In this document: positions 23,798 to 43,165 of the stretch, in pieces
How the letters are laid out: each line of letters opens with the position of its first letter
Numbering within the stretch: the first letter of the stretch is position 1
NCBI GenBank assembly: GCA_049668445.1
Contig: JBATJK010000235.1
Location: 15,714 to 79,713 of the forward strand
Reading direction: 5' to 3'
Length of the DNA stretch: 64,000 nt
Origin: Gemmatimonadota bacterium
Lineage (GTDB): Bacteria > Gemmatimonadota > Gemmatimonadetes > Palauibacterales > Palauibacteraceae
Program-made: the position numbers and the translations under genes
The notes under the pieces: model-generated
The model's input: the letters and a program-made list of their open reading frames with translations, nothing else
The model's database searches: none
Told to the model about the DNA's origin: nothing

Positions 23798-24435
23798 ACC
23801 CCGCCTACTGGCGCGACCGGCGACGCCTGATCGAGGGCCTCCAGGCGGGCGGAGTCAACGACCTTGCCATACTGCACGCCTTCGACGCCATCCCCAGGCA
23901 CATGTTCGTTCCGGATGCGGTCCGTCACCGATCGTACGACGATGTCGCCCTCCCGCTTGGCCATGGGCAGACCATTTCGCGGCCTGGAGCGCACGCTCTG
24001 CACCTGGGACTGGCCGGCCTCACGGGAGAGGAGAAGGTGCTCGAGATCGGTACAGGCTCGGGATACCAGACAGCTCTCCTGAGCCAGCTGGCAGCGCACG
24101 TGTACTCGGTGGAGACGGTTCAGGAACTCGCGGATCTCGCCGAGGCCCGCTTGCGGGACCTGGGTGTCGAGAACGTGACCACCCGGGCGGGGGATGGGAG
24201 CGCCGGCTGGCCGGAGTTCGCTCCCTACGACGTGATCCTGTGCGGGGCCGCGGCTCCTCGAGTTCCGCAGCCTCTGATCGACCAACTCGTCCCCGGCGGC
24301 CGACTGATCATCCCGGTGGGGGACGATTCCGGACAGCGCCTTGTCCGTGTCACCCTGGAGACGGACGGCCGGCTCAGTGAGGAGACCGTGGACAGCGCCC
24401 GCTTCGTACCACTCACAGGGGAAGAGGGATGGTGA
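23779..24435 (+). CDS. pcm: Protein-L-isoaspartate O-methyltransferase
   Basis: AIPRHMFVPD, VLEIGTGSGYQTALLSQLA (SAM motif I), and PYDVILCGAAAPRVPQPLIDQLVPGGRLIIPVG match Pcm. surE-pcm pairing is conserved. Apparent TTG start overlapping surE. Confidence 0.85.
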   Translation: MDAGRIDPAYWRDRRRLIEGLQAGGVNDLAILHAFDAIPRHMFVPDAVRHRSYDDVALPLGHGQTISRPGAHALHLGLAGLTGEEKVLEIGTGSGYQTALLSQLAAHVYSVETVQELADLAEARLRDLGVENVTTRAGDGSAGWPEFAPYDVILCGAAAPRVPQPLIDQLVPGGRLIIPVGDDSGQRLVRVTLETDGRLSEETVDSARFVPLTGEEGW

Positions 24436-24466
24436 TACTGGAGACAACCCTTTCCGAGAATGGCCG

Positions 24467-25138
24467 ATGACCGAAATCCTGATCGAATACGTTCAGCTCG
24501 GCGCCGAACTCGGCCGCACCTGGGGCCCTCTCATCGTGCTCGTGCTGATGGCGGTCGAGAGTTCGTTCATACCCTTCCCGTCGGAAGTGGTCATGATCCC
24601 GGCCGGATTCATGGCCGCGCGAGGAGAGTTTCTCCCACCGGATCCGGTGGCGGGACTCGTCGTAGCCGTGGTCGCGGGGATCCTCGGCTCACTCCTCGGA
24701 GCGTTCCTGAACTACGGGCTTTCCTTGAAGCTCGGGAGACCCTTCCTCTATCGCTACGGGCGCTACTTCTTCCTCTCCGCCGCAAGCCTGGAGCGCGCCG
24801 AGGAGTTGTTCAGGCGCCACGGTGAGATCACGACCTTCGTCTGCCGCCTCATCCCGGCAATCCGCCAGCTCATCTCCATTCCGGCGGGTCTCTCCCGGAT
24901 GCGTTTCGGACGGTTCGCGCTCTTCACCGGACTCGGAGCGGGGATCTGGGTGATCATCCTCAGCATCGCCGGATTCGCGCTGGGGAAGGGCACGCGCGAT
25001 ATGAGTTACGAGGAACTGGTCCCCGCCGGTGAGGCCATGATCCGGGGGAACCTCGGATGGATCTTCTGGGGTCTCGTGCTCGTCATCGTCATGTACATAT
25101 GGGTACATCGCCGGGTCATGCACGGAGGCTCGCATTGA
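24467..25138 (+). CDS. DedA/TVP38-family membrane protein
   Basis: ATG at 24467 with a GGAG-like RBS. Polytopic. DedA core (ESSFIPFPSEVVMIPAGF...FVCRLIPAIRQLISIPAGLSRM). Confidence 0.85.
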   Translation: MTEILIEYVQLGAELGRTWGPLIVLVLMAVESSFIPFPSEVVMIPAGFMAARGEFLPPDPVAGLVVAVVAGILGSLLGAFLNYGLSLKLGRPFLYRYGRYFFLSAASLERAEELFRRHGEITTFVCRLIPAIRQLISIPAGLSRMRFGRFALFTGLGAGIWVIILSIAGFALGKGTRDMSYEELVPAGEAMIRGNLGWIFWGLVLVIVMYIWVHRRVMHGGSH

Positions 25139-25218
25139 CTGACCCGCGACTCTGACCCTAGTTTTGCGTGCTTCGCCCCAGGTGGGGCAGGGGGTTCGCG
25201 ACGCGCAAGGCGCATCCG

Positions 25219-25233
25219 CGCTTCTGAAGCGCA
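25219..25233 (+). promoter_or_regulatory. 7-1-7 inverted repeat GCGCTTCtGAAGCGC in the dedA / TPR-gene spacer (possible operator)
   Basis: Perfect palindrome read from the sequence. Lies ~95 nt upstream of the 25329 ATG in a 190-nt lower-GC spacer. A second small hairpin gcccc-aggt-ggggc sits at 25176-25189. Confidence 0.25.
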
Positions 25234-25328
25234 TGCGCCGATGTACCGTAACTCGTTTTACTGCAACAACTTACGACAGTATTGCTCAGTGCAGGCGTTG
25301 TCCATACAGAAAGGCGTTGTGGCAAGAC

Positions 25329-26150
25329 ATGGCTAAGCAAATAGCCCGCGAGAAGCGGCCGGGACATATCGATACCGAAGATCACGTCACCGAGCGGGTC
25401 CTCGAGGCCGCGGCGTGGGCGGAAAACCACCGCCGGGCGGTGATCGCTGGAGGAATCGCGCTGGCACTCGTGGTCGCCGCGGCGTTCTACTACCAGGACT
25501 ACCGGAGCAAGCTCGTCGACAGGGCATCCGTGCGACTCCAGGAGATCCAGATGTCGGCCCAGTCAGCCGACATGGAAACGATTCGATCGGAGTTGCGGAT
25601 CTTCATCGATCAGTACTCCAGCACCCCCTACGCCAGCCAGGCACGCGTGGCGCTGGGTGACCTGGAACTGCGCAGGGACAGTCTCGGCCTGGCGATCCAG
25701 GCGCTCCAGCCGGTCGCCGATCTGGGCGCCGACAACCCTCTGTCGTTCACGGCCATGAAGATGATCGCCGCGGCGTATGAGCAGGGTGGCGAGACGGATC
25801 AGGCCATCCAGTGGTACGAGCGGATTTCCTCGGGCGCCATGTTCGACTACCAGCGCCATCTGGGCATGGCGGAGCAGGCCCGTCTCCATACGGCCGCCGG
25901 GCGCTATTCCGATGCCGAATCCCTGTACGAGCAGCTCGTAGCGGAGGCCGAGGAAGACCCGGCCGGGCAGCAGGTGTACGGAGTCAGACTCGGAGAAGTG
26001 CGCGCGCTGGCCCAGTTCGGTGCCGCACCGCCGGCTGCGCTTCCAACCGTGCAGTTGGATCCTCCCGCGGCGAGCGAGGCGGACGAGTCGAGCGAGGCGG
26101 GGGCGGACGAAGGAATCCCGGCGGAAGAGGCACCGGAAGAGGGAGAGTAG
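25329..26150 (+). CDS. Membrane-anchored TPR-like protein (YfgM/UPF0070-like architecture) with acidic C-terminal tail
   Basis: ATG at 25329. Charged N-terminus (MAKQIAREKRPGHIDTEDH). One TM helix (IAGGIALALVVAAAFYY). TPR-like helical region. C-terminal low-complexity acidic tail (EADESSEAGADEGIPAEEAPEEGE). Upstream part of ORF 25164.. rejected. Confidence 0.65.
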   Translation: MAKQIAREKRPGHIDTEDHVTERVLEAAAWAENHRRAVIAGGIALALVVAAAFYYQDYRSKLVDRASVRLQEIQMSAQSADMETIRSELRIFIDQYSSTPYASQARVALGDLELRRDSLGLAIQALQPVADLGADNPLSFTAMKMIAAAYEQGGETDQAIQWYERISSGAMFDYQRHLGMAEQARLHTAAGRYSDAESLYEQLVAEAEEDPAGQQVYGVRLGEVRALAQFGAAPPAALPTVQLDPPAASEADESSEAGADEGIPAEEAPEEGE

Positions 26151-26271: not shown

Positions 26272-27033
26272 TCAGAGGCGTCCGAACAGAGAGCGGAAGC
26301 GCAGGGCCCACACTCTCCACACCGCCTCGCGTACGATGGCTCCCGACATCTTGCTCTCGCCTTCCGTGCGGTCCACGAACACGATGGGTACCTCCCCGAC
26401 GCGGAACCCCTTCTTCCAGGCCCGGAAGTCCATCTCGATCTGGAACGTGTAGCCGGTCGATCCCACCTTCGAGAAGTCGATCGCTTCCAGCACCTCGCGG
26501 CGGAAACACTTGAACCCTGCCGTGGCATCCGACAGGGGGAGTCCTGTCACCACACGGGCGTACTTGTTCGCGAACCAGGACAACAGGAGGCGGCTCATGG
26601 GCCAGTTGATGACGTTGACCCCGCTCACGTAGCGAGAGCCGATCACCAGGTCGAGGTCTCCCTCGGCGGCCTCGAGCAGCGCGGGAAGATACTTCGGGTC
26701 GTGCGAGTGATCCGAGTCCATTTCCAGAAGGAACTCGTATCCGTTCTCCAGGCCCCAGGTGAAACCCCTCAAATAGGCGCTCCCGAGCCCCTGCTTGCCC
26801 TCCCGATGTACCACGTGAACGCGAGGGTTGTCGGACGCCATCAGATCGGCGACTTCACCCGTACCGTCAGGTGACGCGTCGTCCACGACCAGCACGTCGA
26901 TCCTCGGGTCCTGATCCAGCACCACGGGGACGATCGAGGCCAGGTTGCCGGCCTCGTTGTAGGTCGGCATGACGACGAGCGCCCTGCCCCGTCCGATCGG
27001 CTCCGCTCCCGGAACGTTCGGATTCTCGTTCAA
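26272..27033 (-). CDS. GT2 polyprenyl-monophosphate sugar synthase (DPM1/Ppm1-like, soluble type)
   Basis: ALVVMPTYNEAGNL...VLVVDDASPDGT...DSDHSHDP (DxD/ED motifs of DPM synthases). No C-terminal TM helices. Probable TTG start at 27033-27031 overlapping the stop of the upstream gene (TTGA); an internal ATG start (26970) is an alternative. Confidence 0.78.
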   Translation of the reverse strand: MNENPNVPGAEPIGRGRALVVMPTYNEAGNLASIVPVVLDQDPRIDVLVVDDASPDGTGEVADLMASDNPRVHVVHREGKQGLGSAYLRGFTWGLENGYEFLLEMDSDHSHDPKYLPALLEAAEGDLDLVIGSRYVSGVNVINWPMSRLLLSWFANKYARVVTGLPLSDATAGFKCFRREVLEAIDFSKVGSTGYTFQIEMDFRAWKKGFRVGEVPIVFVDRTEGESKMSGAIVREAVWRVWALRFRSLFGRL

Positions 27034-27989
27034 GCCACTCTCTCCTCTTCCTCTACCGTTCTGGGCCAGGCCAGCACCAGAGCCAGCGCGGCGAGTTCGG
27101 TCACCAGCATCCATATCCGGGCCATGATCGCGACCGCAGCCGCCACACCCACCGCCAGCCCCACCAGGTCGGCGAGCAATGCCGTCATCGCGCCCTCGCG
27201 CACGACCAGACCGCCCGGGGCCACCAGCACAAGGTAGCCGACCACATAGCTGGCCGCGAAAATGCCCGTAAGTACCGGCAGATGGCTGACTTCAACTGCG
27301 ATACCGACACCTCGCAAGAGCAGGAAGAGTCCGACCCCATACAGGCACCAGGCCAGGAGCATCCCGGCGGCGGCCCGCACGATGTGTCCCGAGTCCAGCT
27401 CCACCCTCAGGTCGTCTTCTCCGAGCCAGCGGCCAAGCCGACTCGCGACCCAGCGAATCACACGAGGGTGCAATCCCAGCACGAGGATCCCCCCGAGCGT
27501 GATCACGACAGGTACCCAGCTCCCCTCGGCTCCAGCCCACGCGACGCCGATGGTGGATGCGGCGACGGCGCCCCCCGTGACCAGCGTGACAATCTGGAAA
27601 GCCAGCGCGGAGACGAGAGCCGCGGCTCCCGAGTCGCCACGTCCCTTCATGTACGCGGCCAGGCCTCCCAGCTGCCAGACCTTTCCCGGTATGTAACGGC
27701 CGAAGTTGGTGACCACCCAGACTCTGACGGCTTCGGTCCGCCGGACGTTGCCCCCGGTCCCCCTGAAGAGGCTGGCCCAGACACTGCCCATGAGCAGAAG
27801 GTTCGCGACACCAACCACGATCGCCAGCACCAGAAGCCAGGGGCTGAAAGACCAGTCGAAAGCGCGGGTCGCGGCCATGACCTCGTCCAGCGAGGTCCAC
27901 TGCCCTCTCAGCAGCATCCCCACGAAGGTGAGTGCGACGACAAGAAACACCACCGTCACCACGCGACGTGGCTCGCGACCCGAGGTCAC
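27030..27989 (-). CDS. Flippase-like polytopic membrane protein (lysyl-PG-synthase TM-region / TIGR00374-like)
   Basis: ~320 aa, 8 predicted TM helices. GK-rich loop NFGRYIPGKVWQLGGLAAY, typical of the UPF0104 / LPG synthase TM domain. GTG start at 27989-27987 overlapping the YfhO stop (GTGA). Confidence 0.65.
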   Translation of the reverse strand: MTSGREPRRVVTVVFLVVALTFVGMLLRGQWTSLDEVMAATRAFDWSFSPWLLVLAIVVGVANLLLMGSVWASLFRGTGGNVRRTEAVRVWVVTNFGRYIPGKVWQLGGLAAYMKGRGDSGAAALVSALAFQIVTLVTGGAVAASTIGVAWAGAEGSWVPVVITLGGILVLGLHPRVIRWVASRLGRWLGEDDLRVELDSGHIVRAAAGMLLAWCLYGVGLFLLLRGVGIAVEVSHLPVLTGIFAASYVVGYLVLVAPGGLVVREGAMTALLADLVGLAVGVAAAVAIMARIWMLVTELAALALVLAWPRTVEEEERVA

Positions 27990-30316
27990 GATTCCTCCGG
28001 CTCCTTCCCTGACCGGCTCATGCCGGGGAATCGCCAGGGCAAGAACCCGATCAGGAGCCACACGAGAGCGCCGGCCGCCGAGATCCCAGAGACCATGAAC
28101 CCGATCCGGAACTCGGCCGCGGAATAGCGGAAGGTCACCTCGTGAGTGCCCGCCGGCACGACGACGCCCCGGAACGCAGTATTGGTCCGCAGGATCTCGG
28201 TGGGCTGTCCGTCGATTCGGGCCCGCCAGGCCGGATAGTAGACTTCACTGAGAAACAGGAGCCCGGCCTGGCTGGCCTCCACCTGCAGGACGAGCTCGTT
28301 GGGCTCGTATCGCATGATCGTCGCCACCCCCGAGCCCGCCGCCGGAGCCACGTCACCCTCTACGATGGCAAGCTCGAGCGGATCGGCCTCGAGAATCCGG
28401 CGCAGGGCCTCAGCCGTGTCCGGTGTGGCCTCGACTCTTCGCGGGAAGAACGCGTGCGGAACGTCGCCCAGCACCCGGTAAGCCGAGCCTCGCGACCCCG
28501 TAGCCTCCAGAGCGAGAATCTCGGCTGACACGCCTGGCCCGGCCACGATGAAGCCCACATCGAGCAGCCCCAGGGCCGCCACCGTGCCCACGTTCTGCAT
28601 CCCCAATCCGCCCGTGAAGCGCTCGTACCATTCGAGTCGGAACTTCTGGATGCCGGTAACCGTGGGGATTCCATGGACGCTGAGCTCACTGGGCCCGTAG
28701 CCCGCCATTCCCGCCGGAGGGAAGGCCCTCTCGGCCAGGACGAGTTCCGAGCGCAGGTGCTCGATCACCGTATCGGAGGGAAAGACGGTCTCTGGATCCA
28801 CCGTCCGGAGGTAGCGGTCGTTCACGCGCCAGCCATCAGCGACCATGACAAGGAGGAGGAGGGCAACCACCCACTCCGGAGCGCGACGCATTCCCACCCC
28901 CCAGGCCGCGCCCAGGCCGCCTCCGACGCCCAGCAGGAGCATCCAGCCGTTCATCCGGAGCGGTCCCCCTGGATCCGCCGCCGCGGATCGGGTCCAGCCC
29001 ACCGGATACCATGCCGTTCGCACCCAGCGGAGCAGGCCCTCGGGTGAGAAGGCCGCGGCAAGACCGAGAAGGAGCAACGGCGAGGCCAGCAAGAAGACCC
29101 AGACCCACGGGATGCTGCCCACTCCCCTGCGAGCCTCCAGCACCTTCTGCCACCCCAGGCCGGCCAGGAGCGCGATCATGAGGCTCGCGGGACCCAGCAT
29201 CATCGATGGTGCTCGGAATTGCTTGACGAACGGAATGACCGAGTACGCCAGTCGATGCAGCGGCGTGGCCGCGCCCAGGGCGAAGAGAACGCAGGTGAGA
29301 GCGGTAATCGCGACGAAGGTCACCCTGCGATCGCTGCGGATCGCTGTCAGGGCGACGAGGGCCAGGGCCACTGGCACGGCGCCCAGGTACTCGGTGTGGA
29401 GCTTGAACGGGTTGCTTCCCCAATATGTCCCGAGCGATCCGATCAGGTCCGGAAGGATGAGGGCGGAAACCTCCTGCGGGGGAAGCGCCCACGACGATGC
29501 GAAGGCGTAGCCCGACTCCCCTGCCCCACCGCGCACGGCCACGTCCAGGATCTGGACGGTGGGCAGGAGCTGAGCCAACCCGACCAGACCCGCCACCGCG
29601 AAGCCCAGCGCCCACATGCCGACCAGGGGAACCGCTGTTCGCGCCCCCTCGTTCCTGGCTCGCTGCCCGATCCTCATCGCCGCGTACAGCGTGAGAGCGA
29701 GCGAGGAGTAGTACATGAGCTGGATATGGGGCGTAAAGATCTGCAGGGCGATCACGAGGCCAAGGGCGACGAACCACCGAGTGCGGCTCGACTCGAGGCC
29801 CCGTTCGAGACACATGAACGCCAGTGGAATCAGCGCCATCGCGAACATGCGGCCGTCGTGTCCCCCGTACAGTGTCGACACGACGAACCCCGTAAGCATG
29901 AACGCCAATCCGGTCACCGCTGACGGCATGCGCTCCAGTCGAATCGACCGGGCTGCCAGGTAGGCGAAAACACCCGAAAGGAACGTGTGCAATACGAATG
30001 TCCAGCCGATGGCCCGGTGCAGGGGCATGATCAGGTAGAGAAGACTCGTCGGATAGAACACCGGGCCGGGCAGGATCGCGAGGTAGGGTTGTCCCCCATA
30101 CACAAACGGATTCCACAACGGAAACCCTCGGCCGGACCGAATTTCGCCTACTCCGAACGAGCGCAGCTGGAAGCCCTCGTTGATCATGTCGTCGCCGTAC
30201 AGCATCGCGCCGGGATCGAAGATGAACCCGCGGTAGAACACCAGGGTCAGAAATCCGGCGACTGCAGCCGCAATCCATACGAATTGCCGTGTGCTCCAGC
30301 GCCCACCGCCGGTCAT
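27986..30316 (-). CDS. YfhO-family membrane glycosyltransferase (GT-C fold)
   Basis: ~776 aa polytopic. YfhO-like N-terminal region (FYRGFIFDPGAMLYGDDMINEGFQLRSF...FPLWNPFVYGGQPYLAILPG...) and a C-terminal periplasmic domain. ATG at 30316-30314 overlaps the stop of the upstream methyltransferase (ATGA). The longer ORF to 30439 is an over-extension. Confidence 0.72.
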   Translation of the reverse strand: MTGGGRWSTRQFVWIAAAVAGFLTLVFYRGFIFDPGAMLYGDDMINEGFQLRSFGVGEIRSGRGFPLWNPFVYGGQPYLAILPGPVFYPTSLLYLIMPLHRAIGWTFVLHTFLSGVFAYLAARSIRLERMPSAVTGLAFMLTGFVVSTLYGGHDGRMFAMALIPLAFMCLERGLESSRTRWFVALGLVIALQIFTPHIQLMYYSSLALTLYAAMRIGQRARNEGARTAVPLVGMWALGFAVAGLVGLAQLLPTVQILDVAVRGGAGESGYAFASSWALPPQEVSALILPDLIGSLGTYWGSNPFKLHTEYLGAVPVALALVALTAIRSDRRVTFVAITALTCVLFALGAATPLHRLAYSVIPFVKQFRAPSMMLGPASLMIALLAGLGWQKVLEARRGVGSIPWVWVFLLASPLLLLGLAAAFSPEGLLRWVRTAWYPVGWTRSAAADPGGPLRMNGWMLLLGVGGGLGAAWGVGMRRAPEWVVALLLLVMVADGWRVNDRYLRTVDPETVFPSDTVIEHLRSELVLAERAFPPAGMAGYGPSELSVHGIPTVTGIQKFRLEWYERFTGGLGMQNVGTVAALGLLDVGFIVAGPGVSAEILALEATGSRGSAYRVLGDVPHAFFPRRVEATPDTAEALRRILEADPLELAIVEGDVAPAAGSGVATIMRYEPNELVLQVEASQAGLLFLSEVYYPAWRARIDGQPTEILRTNTAFRGVVVPAGTHEVTFRYSAAEFRIGFMVSGISAAGALVWLLIGFLPWRFPGMSRSGKEPEES

Positions 30317-31077
30317 TCGCTGATCTCCAGGGCGTCGGACGGACGTGCCGGCCGCTCGAGGAAGAAGAACCACTGCGGCGATCCGGTTCTGAGGAAGCTC
30401 CGGCGCACCCCAGCAGGCATTCTGCGCATGGCTCCCCACACGGCACCCCAGCGCTCGCCCCAGGCCATGCGGATCAGGTCGTCAATGGCACGCTCTGTCA
30501 CGTCGTGGATGATAAAGCCCGCTGATCGCATGAGTCTCGTCAAGGGTCGATAGGTGAGGAACCGGATGTCGTCGTACGACCGCCCCCGGCGCGTGATGCG
30601 AAGGTAGGCCCCGGCTGACCCCTTCGGTAGCCAACTGAGAAACGGCAGCCGGTAGTGAGGCTCCACGATCGCGAAGCGGCTGCCCGCCGTAACGTAGGCC
30701 CGCCCACCCGGCCTCAGTACCCGATAGGTCTCGCGGAACAGTTCTCCCGCATCGGGAACGTGCTCGTACAGGTGGTTCAACATCACGAAGTCCAGGCTCT
30801 CCGAGGCGAAGGGGATGCGCAGAACATCTCCCCGGACCATGCGTTCCTTCTCGACTATGAATTCGCTGTCTATTTCCAGTCCATATATCGGGTTACCAGA
30901 CTCCACTTCAAGTGCCTTGCGAATAATTCCGGTTCCCGCGCCGAGGTCCGCCGCGCGGGCCGAGCCCGTCAGGTAGGGCGCGCACAGGTGGGCGATGACA
31001 CGGGCCTTTCGGAGGCGTCCCTCCCGATAGGCCTCGGTGGCCGTGAACCTTTCGTATCGATCAGTCCCGGCGCTCAC
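30313..31077 (-). CDS. Class I SAM-dependent methyltransferase
   Basis: Motif I DLGAGTGI; acidic post-I; Methyltransf_11/23-like (VMLNHLYEHVPD...VLRPGGRAYV). GTG start at 31077 is 14 nt after the GT4 stop. The longer ORF to 31191 would overlap GT4 by 130 nt. Confidence 0.72.
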   Translation of the reverse strand: MSAGTDRYERFTATEAYREGRLRKARVIAHLCAPYLTGSARAADLGAGTGIIRKALEVESGNPIYGLEIDSEFIVEKERMVRGDVLRIPFASESLDFVMLNHLYEHVPDAGELFRETYRVLRPGGRAYVTAGSRFAIVEPHYRLPFLSWLPKGSAGAYLRITRRGRSYDDIRFLTYRPLTRLMRSAGFIIHDVTERAIDDLIRMAWGERWGAVWGAMRRMPAGVRRSFLRTGSPQWFFFLERPARPSDALEISE

Positions 31078-32281
31078 GGCGTGCCTCCACGGCGGACGAA
31101 TACACGGCAGTCGTCTCCTCCAGGATTCGCTCCCACGAGAAGCGTGCCTCGGCTCGCCGTTTGCCCTGAGCCGCCACGCGGCGGGCTTCATCCGGATCGG
31201 AGATCACATCGAGAATTCGCCGCGCGAGGACCTCCGAATCCCCTGGATCCGATAACCACCCGGTCTCCCCGTCGATCACGATGTCGGGAATGCCCCCTGC
31301 TCGAGAGGCGACGACGGGGCGCTCATACGCCAGCGCCTCCAGAAGGACGACGCCAAGGCCCTCGGTGTCGCCACGCGAATCCACCACCGCGGGAAGGACG
31401 AAGATGTCCGACTCCGCATACTCCTGCGCGAGCCGCTCCGCCGTCACGAATCCGCGCATGTGGACATGATCCGCGACGCCCTCCAGCGCCGCCGTCCGCC
31501 GCACGCTGTCCTCTCGATTCCCCGAGCCGACGATCACCAGTTCCGCGTCCCGCGTGTGCCGGAGTCTGGCGAGGGCTCGAACCAGCACTTCGACACCTTT
31601 CCTCTCCACGAGCCGGCCGACGAACAGCAGCCGGACGGGATCAGTGGCACTGGAGAGGGCCGGGCGAATGCGGTCCGGTGACACGTCCGGGATCACCGCT
31701 GCATAGGGGACAACGGCCACGGAGCGATCCCACAGGCCCTGTACGGACCTCGCCGTCGAGGTGGAGATGGCCGTCACCGCGTCCGCGGACCGGATGCTCC
31801 ACTCGAGAAACGGACGGAGCCACGGGAGGCGCTGATCTACCCAATTCACCTCCACGCTGTAGAAGCTGCAGACCATCGCGGTCCGTCCCCTCGACGCCCG
31901 GCGCATGGAGGCCCCGAACAGGGCATGCGGCATGGGCCAGTGAACGTGCACCAGATCTGGTCCACCGCGCCCCAGGTCCGCGGCCGCGGCGCACCCTGCC
32001 GCGAGGTAGGACGGCACGAGCGCCGCCGATGCGGGGCGGTCGCGGATCCGATCAGGGACGGCCTGATCGTGTGTGAGTGTTTCCAGGAAACGGGGCGCGT
32101 ACCGGAAACGTCGCACGGGAACGCCTGAGGATTCCTCGTCCGGTCCACCTTTGTACGCGGGCGCCAGGACGCTGGCATCGATTCCAGCCTGGCGCTGACG
32201 TCGGACCAGCTCGACCAGCCAGGGGGTGATCGGATCATCACGATGCCTGGGAAAGGCCGTGGCTACATGAATGACCTTCAT
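31061..32281 (-). CDS. Glycosyltransferase family 4 (retaining, GT-B)
   Basis: 406 aa. N-terminal Glyco_transf_4-like domain (MKVIHVATAFP...) and C-terminal Glycos_transf_1 (EX7E: GDTEGLGVVLLEALAYERPVVASRAGGIPDIV). ATGA overlap with the upstream GT39 gene. Confidence 0.85.
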   Translation of the reverse strand: MKVIHVATAFPRHRDDPITPWLVELVRRQRQAGIDASVLAPAYKGGPDEESSGVPVRRFRYAPRFLETLTHDQAVPDRIRDRPASAALVPSYLAAGCAAAADLGRGGPDLVHVHWPMPHALFGASMRRASRGRTAMVCSFYSVEVNWVDQRLPWLRPFLEWSIRSADAVTAISTSTARSVQGLWDRSVAVVPYAAVIPDVSPDRIRPALSSATDPVRLLFVGRLVERKGVEVLVRALARLRHTRDAELVIVGSGNREDSVRRTAALEGVADHVHMRGFVTAERLAQEYAESDIFVLPAVVDSRGDTEGLGVVLLEALAYERPVVASRAGGIPDIVIDGETGWLSDPGDSEVLARRILDVISDPDEARRVAAQGKRRAEARFSWERILEETTAVYSSAVEARRERRD

Positions 32282-33882
32282 GGTTCGCCGGGCGCTGAAG
32301 CGGTCCGCGGGGCCGATAGCAGACGCAGGAGCGCCGTGCCTTCTTCTCCTCCCACCGTGTGTACGACCTCGAAGCGCTCCAGGTTGGCCGCGATGGCCGG
32401 AATCAGGTACATGGCCGTGGTGGCGCTCAGCCGGTCGACCAGCACGTAGTCCGCCCCCATCTCCTCGAGCCCCCGCAGCACGACGGAAGGATCCTGGGAG
32501 TAGGGATACAGGTCTCCCTGTCGACGAGAAAACAGGTAGAAGGTGGCGGGGCTGCGGTTGGCGATGACCGACCCCTCAGGGGTGTTCTCCGAGGCCCACC
32601 AGCCCATGGCATAGAACTCCCGGTACTGTGGACGGTCACACGGATGACCGTCCCGGTACGCGAACTGGCAGGCTACCCGGTACGACACGACAGATCCTGC
32701 CGAGTACAGGGCCATCGTGGCGACTCCGGCCACGACGAGTCCTATCGTCGCGTACCCGATCCTCCGCCCCATGGATTCGACGCCAGCCGCCGCTCCCGCC
32801 GCGCCGAACACAACGAGGAGTGGCAGGATGGGAAGGAGAAACCGACGGTCGGTCCACACCGGCGGCCACAGCAGGATGAGACCGACGTAGAACGCCACGA
32901 GGAGGTGGGCCACACTCACCCGATTGGCGGCCGACCGAAGCCAGCCGTAAAGGACCAGCGAACTCAAGAAGACTCCGGCGATGGCCGTGCCAGTGACCGT
33001 CGCCCTCCGAACGGTTGGGAACCCGAATGAGCCAGGCAACTCTGAGCTGACGTAGCGCCAGAGGTTCGTCGCCGCCCGCGCCGGAAAGTCCATCAAGCTG
33101 ACGGTTCCAGCGGCCGGGACGTAGGGGTTCTGCTGGATGAGCTGCTGCAGGTAACCCGGCTGCGAGGGCTGGGCCACGTGCTGATAGACGGCCCAACCTG
33201 CGACACAGAAGAGGGCCACCAGCAAGGCCGCCACGGCCCGCCGGCGATCCCGCGACAGGAGGGCCCACACCACCAGGGTGAGAAGCACGGACAGCCCGGC
33301 CGTGCGGGTGAAGAAGGCCGCGGCCGCAGCTGCCAGGGCCGCGGCTCCGACACGTCTGTCTCCCAGGGTGGCCGCGACGACGGCCAACAGGAGGAAAGTG
33401 AACGCCGCTTCGGACAACACCCGGTGGGAGAAATCCAACAGAACCGGCGCCATGGCAAACAGGCCGGCCGCCACGAACGCGGCCCGCTTTCCGACGAGCG
33501 ATTCGGCGATTCGATAGGTCAGCCACACCGAACCCGCGGCGAACGCCATCGAGGCCGCCTTGAACAGCTGCAGGCCACCGAACCAGCCTGCGATCGCCAG
33601 GATCAGGGGGTAGCCAGGCGGGAACTTCGCGTGCAGCGGCGAACCCGGCAGCTGGATGTCCCGGAAGCCCATCCCGCTGCGCAGCGACTCGCCGAGGACC
33701 ATGTAATGGCCCGCATCCGCCCCCGGGAAGAGCGTCGGCTCGAACACCAGTACGGCCAGGAGCACGTGGGCGGCGACGAGCACCGTTGGTGCGAGGATTC
33801 CCTCCGCTCCCGAGAGAGACGCAGCGTCCTCAGCCTTGAGATCCTTAGAGTCGGGCCCTCCGGCGGTGCCCCGGCCGATCAC
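32278..33882 (-). CDS. GT-C glycosyltransferase, family 39/83 type (PMT / ArnT-like; polyprenyl-phosphate-sugar dependent)
   Basis: 534 aa, ~11 TM helices then a ~150-aa C-terminal soluble domain. N-terminal loop with acidic/aromatic residues (HYMVLGESLRSGMGFRDIQLPGSPLHAKFPPGYPLILA), typical of PMT_2/ArnT. ATGA overlap with the GT2 upstream. Confidence 0.72.
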   Translation of the reverse strand: MIGRGTAGGPDSKDLKAEDAASLSGAEGILAPTVLVAAHVLLAVLVFEPTLFPGADAGHYMVLGESLRSGMGFRDIQLPGSPLHAKFPPGYPLILAIAGWFGGLQLFKAASMAFAAGSVWLTYRIAESLVGKRAAFVAAGLFAMAPVLLDFSHRVLSEAAFTFLLLAVVAATLGDRRVGAAALAAAAAAFFTRTAGLSVLLTLVVWALLSRDRRRAVAALLVALFCVAGWAVYQHVAQPSQPGYLQQLIQQNPYVPAAGTVSLMDFPARAATNLWRYVSSELPGSFGFPTVRRATVTGTAIAGVFLSSLVLYGWLRSAANRVSVAHLLVAFYVGLILLWPPVWTDRRFLLPILPLLVVFGAAGAAAGVESMGRRIGYATIGLVVAGVATMALYSAGSVVSYRVACQFAYRDGHPCDRPQYREFYAMGWWASENTPEGSVIANRSPATFYLFSRRQGDLYPYSQDPSVVLRGLEEMGADYVLVDRLSATTAMYLIPAIAANLERFEVVHTVGGEEGTALLRLLSAPRTASAPGEP

Positions 33883-34844
33883 CTTCTGAGCTCTCGGCGG
33901 AGATCCTCCACCTCGGCCCGGAGCCCCGCGATCAGTTCAGCCAGCAAACCTGCCACGAACAGCAAGCCTCCCAGAAGAACCAGAAAGACGACAAGGGTGA
34001 GAAGCGGTCTGAACCCCGTGCCCAACGCGTAGCGCAGAATCAGGGCCACGATTCCAACGAGCACCCCCACTCCAGCCACGAACAGACCGGTGAGTCCGAA
34101 GAAGAGCATCGGTTTGCGGCTGAACACCAGCTGGAACCACACGGAGATCAGGTCGAGCAGCCCGACCACCACCCTGCCCTGCCCGCTGTACTTGGACACG
34201 CCGTGGCGCCTGGGAAGCAGATCGATGTCGATCTCGCCGATCCGAAATCCCCGATCGTGCGCCAGGACAACGAGATAGCGGTGCCAATCCTCGCGGAGGT
34301 GAATCTCGTCCACCACCTCCCGCCGGAACGCCTTCATGGAGTTCAGGTCACGGACCGGCACCCGGAAGATCATGCGTGACAGGCCATTGTAGGCCCCCGA
34401 CACCATGCGCTTCGGGTAGTCTCCCACCTTGCGCCCCACCACCACATCGTGGTCCTCATCCAGCGCATCCAGGAAGCGGGGGATCTCGTCCGTGGCGTGC
34501 TGGAGATCGGCATCGAACAGCACGAATACGGGCGCGTCGGTGGACCTCACGGCCGTCACCAGGGCCGCCGTCTTCCCCCTGTTCACGCGATGTCGCAGGA
34601 AGAGGGTCCGATCCTCGATGCCCGAAGCGCTGGCCGCCGTTCGTGCCGCCTCGAGCGTCCCATCAGTCGAACCGTCGTCGACCAGGACGATTCTACCGTT
34701 CAGCTGAAAGCGTGAGAACGTCCCCGCCAGATCCTGAAACAGATCCGGCATGTTCTCCGCTTCGTTATAGGCCGGAACGATTACCGAGAAGCGTATGGAG
34801 GTCGGCGGGAGGGGGTCGGCGGGAGACAACCCGGACTCGGTCAT
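33879..34844 (-). CDS. GT2 polyprenyl-phosphate sugar synthase, GtrB/ArnC/CsbB type (two C-terminal TM helices)
   Basis: FSVIVPAYNEAENM...IVLVDDGSTDGT...DADLQH (DxD...D). C-terminal TM pair (MLFFGLTGLFVAGVGVLV...LLGGLLFVAGLL). ATG at 34844-34842 overlaps the rpoN stop 34843-34841 (ATGA). Confidence 0.85.
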   Translation of the reverse strand: MTESGLSPADPLPPTSIRFSVIVPAYNEAENMPDLFQDLAGTFSRFQLNGRIVLVDDGSTDGTLEAARTAASASGIEDRTLFLRHRVNRGKTAALVTAVRSTDAPVFVLFDADLQHATDEIPRFLDALDEDHDVVVGRKVGDYPKRMVSGAYNGLSRMIFRVPVRDLNSMKAFRREVVDEIHLREDWHRYLVVLAHDRGFRIGEIDIDLLPRRHGVSKYSGQGRVVVGLLDLISVWFQLVFSRKPMLFFGLTGLFVAGVGVLVGIVALILRYALGTGFRPLLTLVVFLVLLGGLLFVAGLLAELIAGLRAEVEDLRRELRR

Positions 34845-36280
34845 ACTCGCTTACGCATCCTCGCCGAGAGGATTCCGAGTTGATCCCTGTACTTCGCGAC
34901 TGTCCGCCGCGCGATCTGGACGCCCTCCTGCTTCAGGACGTCCACGATGGCCTGGTCGGTCAGGGGTTTCTTCGGATCTTCGTCGGCCACCAGCTTCTGA
35001 ATCCGGGCCCGGATACCCCGGGCGGATACGTCCTCGCCGTAGTCAGTCGACAGCCCGGAGGAGAAGAAGAACTTCAGAGGGAGCACCCCGCGTGGCGTCT
35101 GCACGAACTTGTCGTTCGTCACTCGCGACACGGTGGACTCGTGCATGTCGATGTGCTCCGCCACCTCGCGAAGGGTCAGGGGCCTCAGGTGCTCCACGCC
35201 CTTCTCGAAGAACTCGCGCTGACGGTCTACGATGAAGCCCATGACCTTGAGCATCGTCTGCCGTCGCTGCTCGATCGCCTGGATCATCCACTGAGCGCTG
35301 TTGAGCTTCTTGGAGATGAAGGCCTTGTTCTCTCCCTGGTACTGGTTCCGGTCCTGGGCCACCTCCCGGTAGGATCGCGAGAGCTTGAGGCGCGGCAACG
35401 ACGAGTCGTTGTGAAACACGAAGTACTCGCCATCGACCTTCTCGACCGCCAGGTCGGGAATGACGTAGTTGTCGCTCATGTCCGCGTACTTCAGACCGGG
35501 CTTCGGATCGAGCTTGGCGATCGAATCGGCAGCGCTCTGGACGTCCAGGGGAGAGATCCCGTGTTCCTTGGAAAGCTCGCTCCACCTGTGGTTCACCAGC
35601 TGCTCGAAATGGTCCTGGATGATTCGATAGGCCAGGCTATCGTCTTCCTTCCGCTCCCGCAGCTGGATCAGAAGCGTCTCGCGTAGATTCCGGGCACCGA
35701 CGCCCGAAGGATAGAAGCCCTGAATGACCCGGAGAACCGCTTCCGCCTCCTCGAGCGTGAAGGGCTCCATCTCCGCCCACAGTTCGGGCTCGCTCTCGGC
35801 CAACCACGTGTTGGCCGCTTCGACGACTTCCTCGAGGCTGCAGGCGAGAAACCCCTCGCGATCGATGTTGCCGATGATCTCCTCACCAAGGGCGAACTCA
35901 CGCGGTCCGAGCGTGAGGAGATTGAGCTGCTCGCGCAGGTGCTCCCAGAGATCGGGCGGAGCAGCCGGAGTGGGCATGTAGTGCTCTTTGTCTTCGAACT
36001 GGCTCCGTCTACCGCCTGCATCGAAGCCGTTCAGGAGGATCTCTTCCCAATCGACCTCGTCCTCGTCTTCTTCCTCTTCCTGCTTCTCTTCAGGAAGTTC
36101 CTCTTCCGCCATCTCGGTGAACTCGAGGAACGGATTGACCAGCACCTCCAGCTTCAGGTGCGCCTGCAGGTCCAGCAGAGGCATGTAGAGCAGATCCATC
36201 GCCTGGTAAAGGCGGGGATTGATCTTCAGCTCCTGCCGCATTCCGAGGCTCTGCGAGAGCCCTCGTCTAAAATCCGCCAT
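34841..36280 (-). CDS. rpoN: RNA polymerase sigma-54 factor
   Basis: 479 aa. Q/L-rich region I (MRQELKINPRLYQAMDLL), acidic region II, and C-terminal RpoN box (ARRTVAKYRDQLGI). Downstream of lptB as in most Gram-negatives. Confidence 0.9.
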   Translation of the reverse strand: MADFRRGLSQSLGMRQELKINPRLYQAMDLLYMPLLDLQAHLKLEVLVNPFLEFTEMAEEELPEEKQEEEEDEDEVDWEEILLNGFDAGGRRSQFEDKEHYMPTPAAPPDLWEHLREQLNLLTLGPREFALGEEIIGNIDREGFLACSLEEVVEAANTWLAESEPELWAEMEPFTLEEAEAVLRVIQGFYPSGVGARNLRETLLIQLRERKEDDSLAYRIIQDHFEQLVNHRWSELSKEHGISPLDVQSAADSIAKLDPKPGLKYADMSDNYVIPDLAVEKVDGEYFVFHNDSSLPRLKLSRSYREVAQDRNQYQGENKAFISKKLNSAQWMIQAIEQRRQTMLKVMGFIVDRQREFFEKGVEHLRPLTLREVAEHIDMHESTVSRVTNDKFVQTPRGVLPLKFFFSSGLSTDYGEDVSARGIRARIQKLVADEDPKKPLTDQAIVDVLKQEGVQIARRTVAKYRDQLGILSARMRKRV

Positions 36281-36413: not shown

Positions 36414-37145
36414 TTAGAGCTCGAAATCGAGCCCCAGATACATCTTGCGGGCTTCCGGATCGTCAACGAGGGTTTGAGCCGGTCCCTCGATATGAATCTG
36501 GCCGTTGAACATCAGGTAGGCCCGGTCCGTGATCGAGAGAGTCTCGCGCACGTTGTGGTCCGTGATCAGCACGCCGAGGCCACGTTCCCTGAGCTCTGCG
36601 ACGATGCGCTGGATGTCATCCACCGCAATGGGGTCAACGCCGGCGAATGGCTCGTCGAGCAGCATGAACTTGGGGCGAGTGACCAGGGCCCGTGTGATCT
36701 CGAGTCTGCGTCGCTCACCACCTGACAACGAATCCGCCTTGCTCTTCCGCAGGTGGCCGATCGACAACTCGCCGAGCAGCTCGTCCAACCGGCTCTGACG
36801 CTCCGCGCGCGTCATGTCGAGCGTCTGCAGAATGGCCATGACATTCTGCTCGACCGTGAGACGCCGGAAGATCGAGGGCTCCTGGGAGAGGTAGCCGATA
36901 CCAGCTCGGGCACGGCGATACATGGGGACCCTGGTCAGTTCCTGCTGGTCGAGGTACACCCGGCCCGCGTTTGCGCCGAGCAATCCCACGATCATGTAGA
37001 AGGTGGTGGTCTTCCCCGCCCCGTTGGGTCCAAGCAACCCTACGATTTCACCCTGGTGGACCTCGAGGTCGACACCATCCACCACACGCCGTTTGCCGAA
37101 CGCCTTCACCAGCCCCTCGGCCCTCAAGACGCTCCTGGTGCTCAA
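36414..37145 (-). CDS. lptB: LPS export ABC transporter ATP-binding protein LptB
   Basis: Walker [10 protein letters not shown], signature [11 protein letters not shown], Walker B LLDEP. 243 aa. Adjacent to lptA/lptC and rpoN. Confidence 0.9.
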
Positions 37146-38509
37146 CCGCCTTCTCCTTCCGTTGAGGGCTCGAGGTAGATCCCTATGGCATCCCTGGCGA
37201 TCACCTCGGACGGCTCCCCGTCCTCGAACAGCACCTCGATCCGGTTCCCGAGCAGGTAGTTACGGGATGGCTCCTCGGACCGAATGGAATCACGCACGGA
37301 GGCGTAGAACGACCTCGCGCTGCCGAGGGCCATGATACGTTCGGGCTTGGGGTTCGACTCCGCCGGTGCGAGAAGTGAGTCGGCGGGAGCGGGACTGAAG
37401 AAGGCCCGGATCGTGTCCCCCGTGAGCCAGTTCGAACCGGGATCGAGGTCCTTGGCCGCCTCGACCAATGTCTCTCCAGGTATGTGCGGCACGGTCTCCA
37501 CGGAAGAGGCATCTCCCACCGAGGCGATGGAATCGATCCGGCCTGCCGTCAGGAAAAACTCGATCGAGTCACCCGCGAGTTGAAAGCTACCCGAGACAGC
37601 GATCGACCGTCCCTCGCCGAATGCCCACAAGCGCTCGACTTCACCTCCGCTGAACGCGGCCGTCACCAGATCGGACTGGAGCTCGAAGTCCTCGCCGGTC
37701 GCCGCCGCCTCACCGAACGACTCTACCTCTCGAAGCTCGTCGTCGGCGAAGCGAGCCACGACGCTGTCCCCCGTGAGCTCGAATCCCTCCCCCCGAATGA
37801 TCGGGCGCCCGTAAAGGACTCCTACCCCGCTCGCATCGAAGCGCGCACTCTCGGCGGTCGCGTCCAGGTCCGACCTGTGGATCTCGACGTTCCCGCGCGC
37901 GAATGCCTGCTCTTCTCCCTGGAATTCAGCCTCGTCGGCGTCCACGAGGAAGGGCTCCGTCCCCGGCCCGCCGGTCGGCAACTCCATGTGCGGCCTTCCG
38001 GTGGCGATCGTGCGGTTTCCCTGAAACGGAGTGCGCATGAAGTCGACCCGCGGCCCCTCCAGCGTCGCACCGGATCGCAGGCGCTCGAGCCGCACATCAC
38101 CCACCGCGATGACACGGTCGGTCAATCCGTAGTATGTCACCGTGTCCGCATCCAGCACCCGCGTCGTGTCCCTGTAGCGAACACTCCCGATCATCCGGGC
38201 TTCAGAGCGGTGTTCCAGGTGCACCGCGCTATCTCCGGTCATGGAAGCATCGCCACACTGGCCGATGACCAGCCCACCACCAAGGTGCATGGCATAACGG
38301 CCCTCGGAACCGGGGATCGCCAGCATGTTGCTTCTGGGCTGATCAGCGGACCCGGACGCCGCGACCACCCGGACCCTGAGCTGGCAGCTTGGAGCGCCCT
38401 GCGCCTCGGCCGACCCGGGAGCTGCCAGCGCCGCCAGAATGACGAACGCGGAGCCGGCACAGAGAGAACGCATGGACGTGAAACCCGTTGGCTGCAGGCT
38501 CGTGGTCAT
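37142..38509 (-). CDS. lptA: LptA/OstA-family periplasmic LPS transport protein (unusually long, ~440-455 aa)
   Basis: Signal peptide ([24 protein letters not shown]; internal ATG at 38473 is an alternative start). Repeated OstA-like beta-jellyroll segments. Its stop overlaps the lptB start, and ATGA overlaps the lptC stop at 38509. Confidence 0.72.
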
Positions 38510-39102
38510 TCAGGCAGCGTGCGCCGGCCAGCGGTGGGGTCTCCTTCCGACACGAAGCTGGGATTGAGGCTCTGAACGTTCTCGAGCTGCGCGTCGCTGA
38601 CGAAACTGGCCCCCCTCATCTCCAGACCTGGCCGGTACAATACGAAAGCCGTGTCCCCGTAGAGAGAATCCGCCGCCGCGACGTAACGAAGCCTCTCGGT
38701 CACCAGGCGCTTGGACCCCACGGCCTCGGTGACCTCGACCCCGCCTCTGACCTCGACGTCGCCCGTTTCGAACTGGTACTCACCCTCCCGCCCGGTCAGC
38801 ACCCCCTCTTCGAGTCCCGTACTGCCGTAGAACGTAATGACCAGATTGCGCAACTCGAGCAGGCCCTCCTCCTGGAAACTGAAGGCCGTGTCTGCCACCA
38901 GTATCCCATTCCGCACGCCTGCTCTGGTGAGGTTCATCTCGACCCCGACCAGCACCTGATCGGCCTCGAGACCCAGCAACGTGTCCGAGGCCAAGGGCTT
39001 CTGGCTCTCCTTCTCGCAGCCGCCCATTGCCGGAAGACAGATCAGAACGAGGGCAGCCCCGCTCAACCTGGCCCTGGCGGGCCGACTCCATGGCCTGCTC
39101 AC
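38506..39102 (-). CDS. lptC: LptC-like periplasmic LPS transport protein (lipoprotein form)
   Basis: 198 aa. Lipobox LVLICLPAMGGC. LptC-like beta-jellyroll. ATGA overlap with the kdsD stop. Confidence 0.68.
   Translation of the reverse strand: MSRPWSRPARARLSGAALVLICLPAMGGCEKESQKPLASDTLLGLEADQVLVGVEMNLTRAGVRNGILVADTAFSFQEEGLLELRNLVITFYGSTGLEEGVLTGREGEYQFETGDVEVRGGVEVTEAVGSKRLVTERLRYVAAADSLYGDTAFVLYRPGLEMRGASFVSDAQLENVQSLNPSFVSEGDPTAGRRTLPE

Positions 39103-40661: not shown

Positions 40662-40665
<4 letters not shown>
40087..40665 (-). CDS. kdsC: 3-deoxy-D-manno-octulosonate 8-phosphate phosphatase (HAD)
   Basis: HAD motif I VLLDADGVMTDG. KdsC core (FHVHDGLGIHMLSRAGLEVAIVSG). ATG at 40665 overlaps the kdsA stop (ATGA). 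The long upstream ORF extension is rejected. Confidence 0.8.

Positions 40666-43165
<2,500 letters not shown>

Follow-up and report, generated by a model that had tools for sequence, protein, structure and literature searches.

A conserved seven-gene operon behind rpoN in Gemmatimonadota and its predicted role in envelope glycosylation

We analyzed a 64,000-nucleotide stretch of DNA from an uncultured marine Gemmatimonadota bacterium (assembly GCA_049668445.1, contig JBATJK010000235.1, positions 15,714 to 79,713), hereafter the window, in which seven genes lie on the minus strand directly behind rpoN, the gene for sigma-54. They encode four glycosyltransferases (GTs) of the GT2 and GT-C types, one of the GT4 family, a methyltransferase that depends on S-adenosylmethionine (SAM) and a membrane protein resembling the flippase domain of MprF. 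A first-pass annotation, made from the sequence alone, had placed these seven genes behind lptB-rpoN, and the open reading frames (ORFs), profile searches and independent gene calls agree with it. In the order of the string the genes are:

33879-34844, minus strand: GT2a, a membrane-anchored ArnC/GtrB-type enzyme of 321 amino acids (PF00535, 1.7e-25)
32278-33882, minus strand: GT-C enzyme of 534 amino acids, with ~11 transmembrane (TM) helices and a C-terminal periplasmic alpha/beta domain
31061-32281, minus strand: GT4 enzyme of 406 amino acids, GT-B fold, cytoplasmic (PF00534, 6.4e-42; PF13439, 4.9e-15)
30313-31077, minus strand: soluble class I SAM-dependent methyltransferase of 254 amino acids (Methyltransf_11, 4.3e-17)
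27986-30316, minus strand: YfhO-family GT-C enzyme of 776 amino acids (PF09586)
27030-27989, minus strand: PplT/UPF0104 protein (MprF-flippase-like) of 319 amino acids (LPG_synthase_TM, PF03706)
26272-27033, minus strand: GT2b, a soluble DPM1/Ppm1-type enzyme of 253 amino acids (PF00535, 7.7e-31)

Gene organization behind rpoN

The same seven-gene set was obtained from independent gene calls on contigs in which the 321-residue GT2a is identical and the other proteins match at 97-100 % by tblastn; exact copies of GT2a are found on contigs of two metagenome-assembled genomes (MAGs), GCA_049665475.1 and GCA_049668325.1. The six four-nucleotide start/stop overlaps that had been listed at first pass are real, with ATGA at 34844, 32281 and 30316, GTGA at 33882 and 27989 and TTGA at 27033, and the seventh junction, between the GT4 and methyltransferase genes, adds an overlap of 17 nucleotides with a GTG start at 31077 and a GGAGG upstream of it. 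The ATGA at 34844 is the junction with rpoN, where the TGA stop of rpoN overlaps the ATG of GT2a. The seven genes continue an uninterrupted minus-strand string that reads pyrG-kdsA-kdsC-kdsD-lptC-LptA/OstA-like-lptB-rpoN and then runs through the block to 26272. Gene calls and Pfam assignments upstream were taken from the contigs with the identical GT2a, whose neighbours match at ~100 % by tblastn:

34841-36280, minus strand: rpoN (sigma-54), 479 amino acids (TIGR02395, 434 bits; Sigma54_AID, CBD and DBD domains)
36414-37145, minus strand: lptB (TIGR04406, 359 bits)
37142-38509, minus strand: LptA/OstA-like gene, 455 amino acids (gene call)
38506-39027, minus strand: lptC (gene call and Pfam)
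39099-40094, minus strand: kdsD (gene call and Pfam)
40087-40665, minus strand: kdsC (gene call and Pfam)
40662-41483, minus strand: kdsA (gene call and Pfam)
41480-43159, minus strand: pyrG (gene call and Pfam)

The product of the gene in the lptA position (37142-38509, minus strand) has no Pfam match, and a homologue of it shows a faint match to LptD_N. With 455 amino acids it is far longer than proteobacterial LptA, which has roughly 185.

A scan for sigma-70 promoters between 25.9 and 43.4 kb gave one promoter-like site where 1.8 are expected. Terminator-like hairpins in the same interval numbered 18 against 7.8 in shuffles; they are weak and lie inside coding regions, and were not used. 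Within the seven-gene block neither promoter nor terminator signals exceed the chance level. Sigma-54 promoters, for which the first-pass annotation had proposed a check, were sought as TGGCAC-N5-TTGCW with at most two mismatches (<=2), and the 17 matches, against 18.7 expected, include none that is meaningfully placed. Rfam and tRNA scans across the window gave no match.

Predicted families and folds of the encoded proteins

GT2a matches ArnC (PRK10714, 9.5e-28) over residues 18-312, and in the PDB it aligns over its full length with ArnC (9hwj, 1.8e-23) and with GtrB sll0501 (9e-13). It has a cytoplasmic GT-A domain followed by 2-3 C-terminal TM helices (segments at 223-302); its score with the ArnC equivalog model is 97 against a cutoff of 529. 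GT2b has no TM helix and matches the dolichol-phosphate-mannose (Dol-P-Man) synthase of Pyrococcus (PDB 5mlz, 1.5e-32) over residues 18-244. It is the most conserved protein of the set, with identities of 83-93 % in close relatives, 60-77 % in more distant Gemmatimonadota lineages and 61 % in the candidate phylum TA06. By these matches both GT2a and GT2b resemble the GT-A/GT2 enzymes that make the polyprenyl-phosphate sugar in three-component glycosylation systems.

The structure of the 534-residue GT-C was predicted with AlphaFold from a 30-sequence alignment, with a mean local confidence (pLDDT) of 85.2 and a predicted template modelling score (pTM) of 0.85. A Foldseek search of the PDB with this model returned STT3, AglB and ArnT at E values of 3e-9 to 6e-8, while a profile search of the PDB by sequence found GPI-MT I alone (E 0.022). 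The YfhO-family protein scores 51.3 bits with PF09586 against a cutoff of 28.5, with only its C-terminal 80 residues aligned. Its model (pLDDT 85.4, pTM 0.87) shows a multi-TM GT-C core at the N-terminus, a beta-sandwich domain in the periplasm and one TM helix at the C-terminus, and Foldseek relates it to AftD (5.7e-9) and ArnT (2.3e-7) and also to STT3 and EmbC. The Pfam score together with this GT-C architecture places the protein in the YfhO family. PDB sequence searches with the YfhO-like and PplT proteins returned nothing significant. Both large membrane proteins are thus predicted with high confidence to adopt a GT-C fold. In each of them an acidic residue in the first periplasmic loop, D56 in the 534-residue GT-C and D/E43 in the YfhO protein, is kept in 30 of 30 homologues, at the position where GT-C enzymes that have been characterised carry the catalytic or metal-binding carboxylate; in the YfhO protein H153, D154, R156 and D290 are invariant as well.

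The family assignments made at first pass (GT2, GT-C, GT4, methyltransferase, YfhO and LPG_synthase_TM) were borne out, except that the 534-residue protein had been assigned to the GT39/83 type. Its PMT_2 match is sub-threshold and the NCBIfam models gave no ArnT match. Going by its model it is a clear GT-C enzyme, and no CAZy family is assignable to it.

PplT reaches 46.3 bits with PF03706 against a cutoff of 33.4 (5e-12), its residues 41-319 covering positions 9-295 of the 302 in the profile, and hydropathy indicates a multi-TM protein. No NCBIfam model matched it, HpnL included. From this we regard it as a member of the MprF-flippase-like PplT family and a candidate flippase of lipid-linked sugars. 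GT4 has no TM helix. Its best PDB sequence match is PimB' (3okc, 1e-25), ahead of BshA (5d00, 7.6e-20), and PimA and MshA are further solved relatives. Its best NCBIfam model is BshA (TIGR03999, 3.3e-35) with 121.7 bits against a cutoff of 273.7; models of the synthases of GlcNAc-phosphatidylglycerol (GlcNAc-PG) and of monoglucosyldiacylglycerol (MGlcDAG) match too, all NCBIfam matches being far below their cutoffs. A homologue of BshC, a protein of bacillithiol synthesis, is encoded elsewhere in the window (11214-12842, plus strand; Rossmann-like_BshC, 2.1e-64). The methyltransferase is an accessory component of the set.

Conservation in Gemmatimonadota and in other phyla

When each GTDB species was represented by a single genome, a scan gave 94 relatives, and 80 loci were taken for analysis of synteny by tblastn. 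About 80 Gemmatimonadota genomes at the species level, from Candidatus Palauibacterales and relatives, retain the operon. Every GT-C homologue from a word-index search that has a source name bears the label Gemmatimonadota; among them are Candidatus Palauibacter and Benthicola, both members of the order Candidatus Palauibacterales. Upstream of the GT-C gene, lptB-rpoN-GT2a was found in 63 of 64 informative loci; downstream, YfhO, PplT and GT2b are present together in 51 of 52, GT4 in 52 of 52 and the methyltransferase in 37 of 52. In a single locus, L084, rpoN is missing upstream; it is interrupted by a 100-N scaffold gap exactly at the junction and is not informative, and the one that was counted as incomplete downstream (L077) lacks only a PplT match above the coverage threshold. 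The four-nucleotide overlap between the rpoN stop and the GT2a start occurs in 58 of 76 independent loci, and the gap between the two genes is at most 100 nucleotides (<=100) in 73 of the 76. These synteny patterns persist down to 35 % GT-C identity, and the kds-lpt-rpoN order upstream is kept in related loci. Since the arrangement recurs in about 80 independent genomes, it is more than chance.

The block had been described at first pass as an island. GC content is 0.64-0.67 both within the block and in its flanks, and the block is conserved across the order, so that a horizontally acquired island was rejected and we regard the seven genes as part of a vertically conserved core operon.

In 16 loci GT4 and the methyltransferase are swapped for a bona fide wecB (UDP-GlcNAc 2-epimerase; TIGR00236, 437 bits) and a different GT4 (L030, L052, L060, L062, L067, L069, L073, L077-L080, L083-L086 and L088). 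These loci belong to a deep clade and to the P. irciniicola group, and the latter additionally has a TylF-type O-methyltransferase, with a LamG/Ig-domain protein nearby. Three loci carry an rfaE-domain-I-like heptose-7-phosphate kinase gene after GT2b. The periplasmic machinery is constant, and the cytoplasmic sugar step varies by lineage. Two loci of the Gemmatimonadota type (L013 and L017, 74-80 % GT-C identity) lie on contigs labelled as Akkermansiaceae and Acidimicrobiia MAGs, which are probably mis-binned.

The GT-C family is large, with 1,635 clusters at E <= 1e-30 in an exhaustive profile search. Only this search made the wider family visible; word-index protein searches gave no named match outside Gemmatimonadota. 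Members were found in the candidate phyla TA06 and WOR-3. In a first TA06 locus (L090/L091, GCA_001303705.1) orthologues of all seven proteins are clustered, with identities of 51 % for GT2a, 27 % for the GT-C, 43 % for GT4, 47 % for the methyltransferase, 30.5 % for YfhO, 32 % for PplT and 61 % for GT2b. The methyltransferase orthologue adjoins that of GT4, and PplT adjoins YfhO here as it does in the Gemmatimonadota loci. This locus also contains Ugd, two sugar-nucleotide enzymes of the short-chain dehydrogenase/reductase (SDR) type and two further PplT paralogues. A second TA06 locus (L095) contains genes for a polyprenyl glycosylphosphotransferase of the exopolysaccharide (EPS) type (TIGR03025, 413 bits; Bac_transf), for a protein like penicillin-binding protein (PBP) 4 and for an M23 peptidase. 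In WOR-3 (L096) a minimal set of PplT, GT-C, methyltransferase and GT2 was found, and a locus of unassigned taxon (L097) combines Ugd and an SDR enzyme with two GT-C/GT2 pairs. Altogether Ugd and SDR genes accompany relatives of the GT-C in L097 and in two loci of TA06. A further related locus (L093) lies beside a class A PBP gene and has GtrA. None of L090/L091, L095, L096 and L097 is near rpoN or lpt. Because the set clusters in TA06 away from rpoN and lpt, the seven genes form a functional unit independent of rpoN, and the linkage to rpoN is a lineage-specific yet ancient feature.

Gemmatimonadota also have paralogues of the GT-C (~30 % identity) that show translational coupling with anmK or form one ORF with it, and a murQ-like SIS gene lies alongside:

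L009, 8781-11698: anmK-linked GT-C paralogue
L092, 9147-12349: anmK-linked GT-C paralogue, GT-C and anmK fused in one ORF of 782 amino acids
L094, 10001-12544: anmK-linked GT-C paralogue, a protein of 847 amino acids that is probably fused to anmK and whose N-terminus has no family match

These paralogues suggest a GT-C enzyme tied to peptidoglycan recycling.

A predicted glycosylation system and its possible acceptors

The encoded families point to multi-component transmembrane glycosylation, a mechanism class that we consider very probable from the protein similarities. In systems of this kind a GT-A enzyme makes an undecaprenyl-phosphate (C55-P) sugar, a flippase moves it across the membrane and a GT-C enzyme transfers the sugar outside, by which lipoteichoic acid, wall teichoic acid and lipopolysaccharide (LPS) are decorated (PMC8035078). 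The reading that we favour, with a probability of about 0.5, takes the seven genes as a core operon of vertical descent that is transcribed together with lptB-rpoN, is for the most part coupled to it in translation and encodes a two-branch glycosylation system dependent on polyprenyl-phosphate sugars and has the lipid A-core as its favoured acceptor. In the first branch GT2a would use a nucleotide sugar to charge undecaprenyl phosphate with a sugar on the cytoplasmic side and, after flipping, the 534-residue GT-C, which probably uses the GT2a product, would transfer this sugar to an acceptor at the periplasmic face. In the second branch the soluble GT2b, probably docked on the adjacent PplT, would make a second polyprenyl-phosphate hexose, which PplT would translocate and the YfhO-family GT-C would transfer. 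GT4 together with the methyltransferase, or in some lineages wecB with another GT4, may act in the cytoplasm and add a lineage-variable sugar to the same acceptor or its precursor before export. The acceptor would be a lipid-anchored envelope glycoconjugate, in this reading the lipid A-core, decorated at the periplasmic leaflet before extraction by LptB2FGC. The sequences show gene content, families and folds, topology, conserved residues of catalytic type, coupling of the operon and its conservation in this and other phyla; we infer the donors, the GT2/GT-C pairing, flipping by PplT and the acceptor; the two-branch pairing is proposed because of the adjacency patterns and because a soluble GT2b needs a membrane partner. 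Precedents for pairing GT2b with PplT are the cooperation of synthase and flippase in MprF and fusions of GT-A domains to PplT (10.1101/2022.03.11.483950).

The same logic of GT-A, flippase and GT-C enzyme (of the YfhO or PMT_2 type) is found in the three-component systems CsbB/GtcA/YfhO, GtlA/GtcA/GtlB and GtsABC (PMC8035078, PMC5836110, PMC7389260). Those systems are Gram-positive, whereas the present operon belongs to a diderm, LPS-making phylum without teichoic acids. It also differs from them in uniting two GT2s and two GT-Cs, one of the YfhO family, with a GT4 and a methyltransferase, in having PplT/UPF0104 instead of a GtrA-family flippase, and in its translational coupling to rpoN. With regard to the latter, the order kdsD-kdsC-lptC-lptA-lptB-rpoN of the proteobacterial lptB-rpoN-hpf-ptsN-rapZ-npr region is kept and rpoN again stands among envelope genes, but here glycosylation genes, and not hpf or ptsN, directly follow rpoN. 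An association of sigma-54 with genes of the cell exterior and envelope is a known theme (PMC3162934).

LPS is possible as the acceptor, and we hold this part of the reading tentatively. The operon lies inside the string kdsA-kdsC-kdsD-lptC-lptA-lptB-rpoN, the lipid A genes lpxD, lpxC-fabZ, lpxA, lpxB and lpxK are in the window, and the gene that follows GT2b in three loci resembles heptose-7-phosphate kinase. Genes for Ugd and an SDR enzyme lie directly ahead of relatives of the GT-C, which also adjoin a GT2, as is the case in the Arn and Rgt lipid A systems (PMC7663294). These systems, in which ArnC/ArnT with ArnE/F transfer 4-amino-4-deoxy-L-arabinose (Ara4N) and RgtE with RgtA-D/F transfers galacturonic acid (PMC7663294; PMC5377068), are comparable also in view of the location of our locus among kds, lpt and lpx genes. 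However, the seven-gene block is without ArnA/B/D, ArnE/F, LpxE/F and Ugd, its scores are far below the equivalog cutoffs, and a YfhO branch, a GT4 and a methyltransferase come in addition. In Burkholderia periplasmic addition of Ara4N is required for LPS export (PMC5377068).

Several points weigh against the favoured reading. The seven-gene block has no flippase of the GtrA type (PF04138) or of the small multidrug resistance (SMR) type of ArnE/F, and it is PplT (PF03706) that occupies the GtrA-equivalent position. The documented or proposed cargo of PplT is a phospholipid or glycolipid, for instance lysyl-phosphatidylglycerol (Lys-PG) or glucosaminyl-phosphatidylglycerol (GlcN-PG), and not a polyprenyl-phosphate sugar (10.1101/2022.03.11.483950; PMC12713373), so that a glycolipid route fits at least as well. 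The fold of the 534-residue GT-C is equidistant from ALG12, AglB, Pmt4 and ArnT, its PMT_2 score is 20.3 bits against a cutoff of 26.1, and the block has no lipid A phosphatase or Kdo/heptose transferase. GT-C relatives also occur beside peptidoglycan genes, and the orthologous TA06 set lies away from lpt, kds and rpoN, with an EPS-type phosphoglycosyltransferase in one locus. The argument made at first pass, from the position of the operon to an LPS target, is weakened by this TA06 arrangement. The reading is built on homology and synteny throughout.

One alternative, which we consider less probable, is that the operon makes a separate membrane glycolipid or lipoglycan, like actinobacterial phosphatidylinositol mannoside (PIM)/lipomannan or GlcN-PG. 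GT4 would then glycosylate a membrane lipid in the cytoplasm, the methyltransferase would tailor it, PplT would flip it as the MprF flippase domain does with Lys-PG, and both GT-C enzymes would extend the glycolipid outside with polyprenyl-phosphate sugars from GT2a and GT2b. PIM, lipomannan and lipoarabinomannan of Actinobacteria are built in a comparable way, by the GT4 enzymes PimA and PimB' acting on the lipid, Ppm1 making the donor and several GT-C mannosyltransferases working outside. The best PDB matches of the operon, PimB' for GT4 (with PimA among the further ones) and Dol-P-Man synthase for the DPM1/Ppm1-like GT2b, and the matches of GT4 to the GlcNAc-PG and MGlcDAG synthase models agree with such a route. 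In TA06 loci every one of the two to three PplT paralogues adjoins a glycosyltransferase, and Ugd is present too, which recalls the lipomannan of Corynebacterium that is anchored on glucuronosyl-diacylglycerol (GlcA-DAG). The block has no initiating phosphoglycosyltransferase, Wzx or WaaL, which would be in line with a glycolipid. Homologues of PplT have been documented or proposed to flip modified phospholipids, and they occur next to GT-A and GT-B enzymes or fused with them (10.1101/2022.03.11.483950; PMC12713373), and the stand-alone PF03706 gene beside a glycosyltransferase of membrane lipids is found likewise in gpgSDF (GlcN-PG of P. aeruginosa) and hexSDF (C. difficile), from which our operon differs by having no deacetylase and by its partners, which are polyprenyl-phosphate-type GT2s and GT-Cs. 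Among PplT-type proteins flipping has been demonstrated only for MprF (10.1101/2022.03.11.483950; PMC12713373). On the other side, the similarity of GT4 is generic, with all NCBIfam matches far below cutoffs, a flippase would still be needed for GT2a, and the strictly conserved place in the kds-lpt-rpoN string is left unexplained. We know of no lipoglycan from Gemmatimonadota.

Another hypothesis, to which we give a low probability, is protein O-glycosylation like that of actinobacterial Ppm1/Pmt or streptococcal GtrB/Pgf, in which the GT-Cs would put single sugars on Ser/Thr of periplasmic or outer-membrane proteins. The YfhO relatives PgfM1 and PgfM2 are protein glycosyltransferases (NCBIfam matches of 4.7e-6 and 7e-3), and the Ppm1/DPM1-like character of GT2b agrees with such a system. 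Yet PMT_2 and Pgf are matched below threshold, a MIR-type domain is absent, and the roles of GT4, wecB and the methyltransferase would be unexplained. Two neighbouring periplasmic proteins, the 455-residue LptA-like and the TPR_21 proteins, were inspected by eye and showed no long disordered tract rich in Ser/Thr. Since Palauibacterales are without flagella, the target is not flagellin (PMC10469786).

Decoration of another periplasmic polymer is slightly less probable still. This could be a polysaccharide linked to undecaprenyl pyrophosphate, with Gtr-like side-branching of EPS or O-antigen, or else peptidoglycan or a glycan linked to it. The TA06 locus with the EPS-type phosphotransferase (TIGR03025), the PBP4-like protein and the M23 peptidase points this way, as do the related locus with GtrA beside a class A PBP (L093), the GT-C paralogues coupled or fused to anmK with the murQ-like gene alongside, and wecB (for UDP-ManNAc) in 16 loci. 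However, these genes are absent from the window and from most Palauibacterales loci, the anmK-linked proteins are only paralogues of ~30 % identity, and no polymerase or exporter is linked.

An O-antigen, capsule or EPS locus was rejected, since a phosphoglycosyltransferase, Wzx, Wzy, Wzz and an ABC exporter are lacking both in the block and in the conserved flanking neighbours. The first-pass annotation had argued similarly from a block without wzx, wzy, wzz, an ABC transporter and nucleotide-sugar genes. This holds for the block itself, while orthologous loci elsewhere do carry wecB or Ugd and SDR genes; comparison of the loci showed no related genome in which the set is part of a standard O-antigen cluster.

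That the seven are unrelated housekeeping genes which happen to be neighbours, with GT4 for example as BshA of bacillithiol synthesis (its best NCBIfam model at 3.3e-35, with the BshC homologue at 11214-12842), is very improbable, because the six 4-nucleotide overlaps and the 17-nucleotide one connect all genes and because in another phylum PplT, YfhO and GT2b are accompanied by orthologues of GT4 and of the methyltransferase. GT4 as BshA was itself rejected on its sub-cutoff score (121.7 against 273.7), the better PDB match of PimB' and the orthologue that travels with the set in TA06.

A more speculative proposal, to which we give a minor chance, is that the seven-gene set, common to Gemmatimonadota and TA06 and represented in WOR-3 by four of its genes, makes an unrecognised envelope glycoconjugate of diderms of the Fibrobacteres-Chlorobi-Bacteroidetes (FCB) group. 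It might be either an obligatory sugar-substituted lipid A-core or a lipomannan-like lipoglycan with lipid-linked intermediates moved by PplT, and in Palauibacterales it would be tied stoichiometrically to sigma-54 and LPS export via translational coupling. Such a glycoconjugate, if real, would give a concrete molecular link for the association between rpoN and the cell exterior. If the acceptor is the lipid A-core, there would be more LPS modifications that may be required before Lpt export.

The combination in one operon had been called undescribed at first pass, and the literature that we searched indeed held no description of this gene set, of YfhO in diderms or of glycosylation genes behind rpoN. 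The genome paper on Palauibacterales makes no mention of glycosylation, LPS or sigma factors (PMC10469786). Each module is already of a known kind, and extracytoplasmic glycosylation that depends on a lipid carrier has been studied well in Firmicutes (teichoic acids) and in Proteobacteria (Arn, Rgt, Gtr). What is new is that two GT-C branches are combined with PplT in place of GtrA or ArnE/F and with a GT4 and a methyltransferase; new as well are the conservation of this combination across candidate phyla of the FCB group, its product, and a translational coupling to rpoN that is itself conserved. In diderm bacteria neither YfhO-type enzymes nor PplT/UPF0104 'flippases' have been assigned a role, and an operon that pairs both is a testable case for the cargo of PplT. 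The operon further leads one to predict an envelope glycoconjugate, as yet uncharacterised, in a marine and sponge-associated order that is abundant and uncultured, and it presents a deeply conserved translational coupling of a sigma-54 gene to an envelope enzyme.

Past the end of the operon the plus-strand genes TPR_21, DedA/VTT, pcm and surE converge on it. The DedA/VTT membrane protein and the TPR_21 (YfgM-like) protein are encoded at 24341-26150, and this pair recurs at the same place across many related loci. Links of DedA proteins with the recycling of undecaprenyl phosphate and with modification by Ara4N have been described, and the adjacency of DedA/VTT to the operon may be functional. 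At the other end of the string an ORF of 509 amino acids (43362-44891, minus strand), between pyrG and xerC/D, has no family match.

The whole window is rich in genes of lipid and envelope biogenesis. A lipid A cluster at 1142-8380 on the plus strand contains lpxD, LpxC-FabZ, lpxA, a Gfo/Idh/MocA oxidoreductase, lpxB, DUF374 and lpxK, with LpxC and a FabZ/FabA-like domain united in a single ORF of 433 amino acids (2320-3621). The oxidoreductase (4412-5416) scores best with the model of UDP-GlcNAc 3-dehydrogenase, its 169 bits falling short of the cutoff; the protein is GnnA-like, which hints at a lipid A of the GlcN3N type. On the minus strand 45404-54539 holds an xerC/D-type recombinase, ispF, purE, two CofH/MqnC-like radical SAM genes, fabF, fabG, fabD and plsX, and the two radical SAM genes may belong to menaquinone synthesis of the futalosine type.

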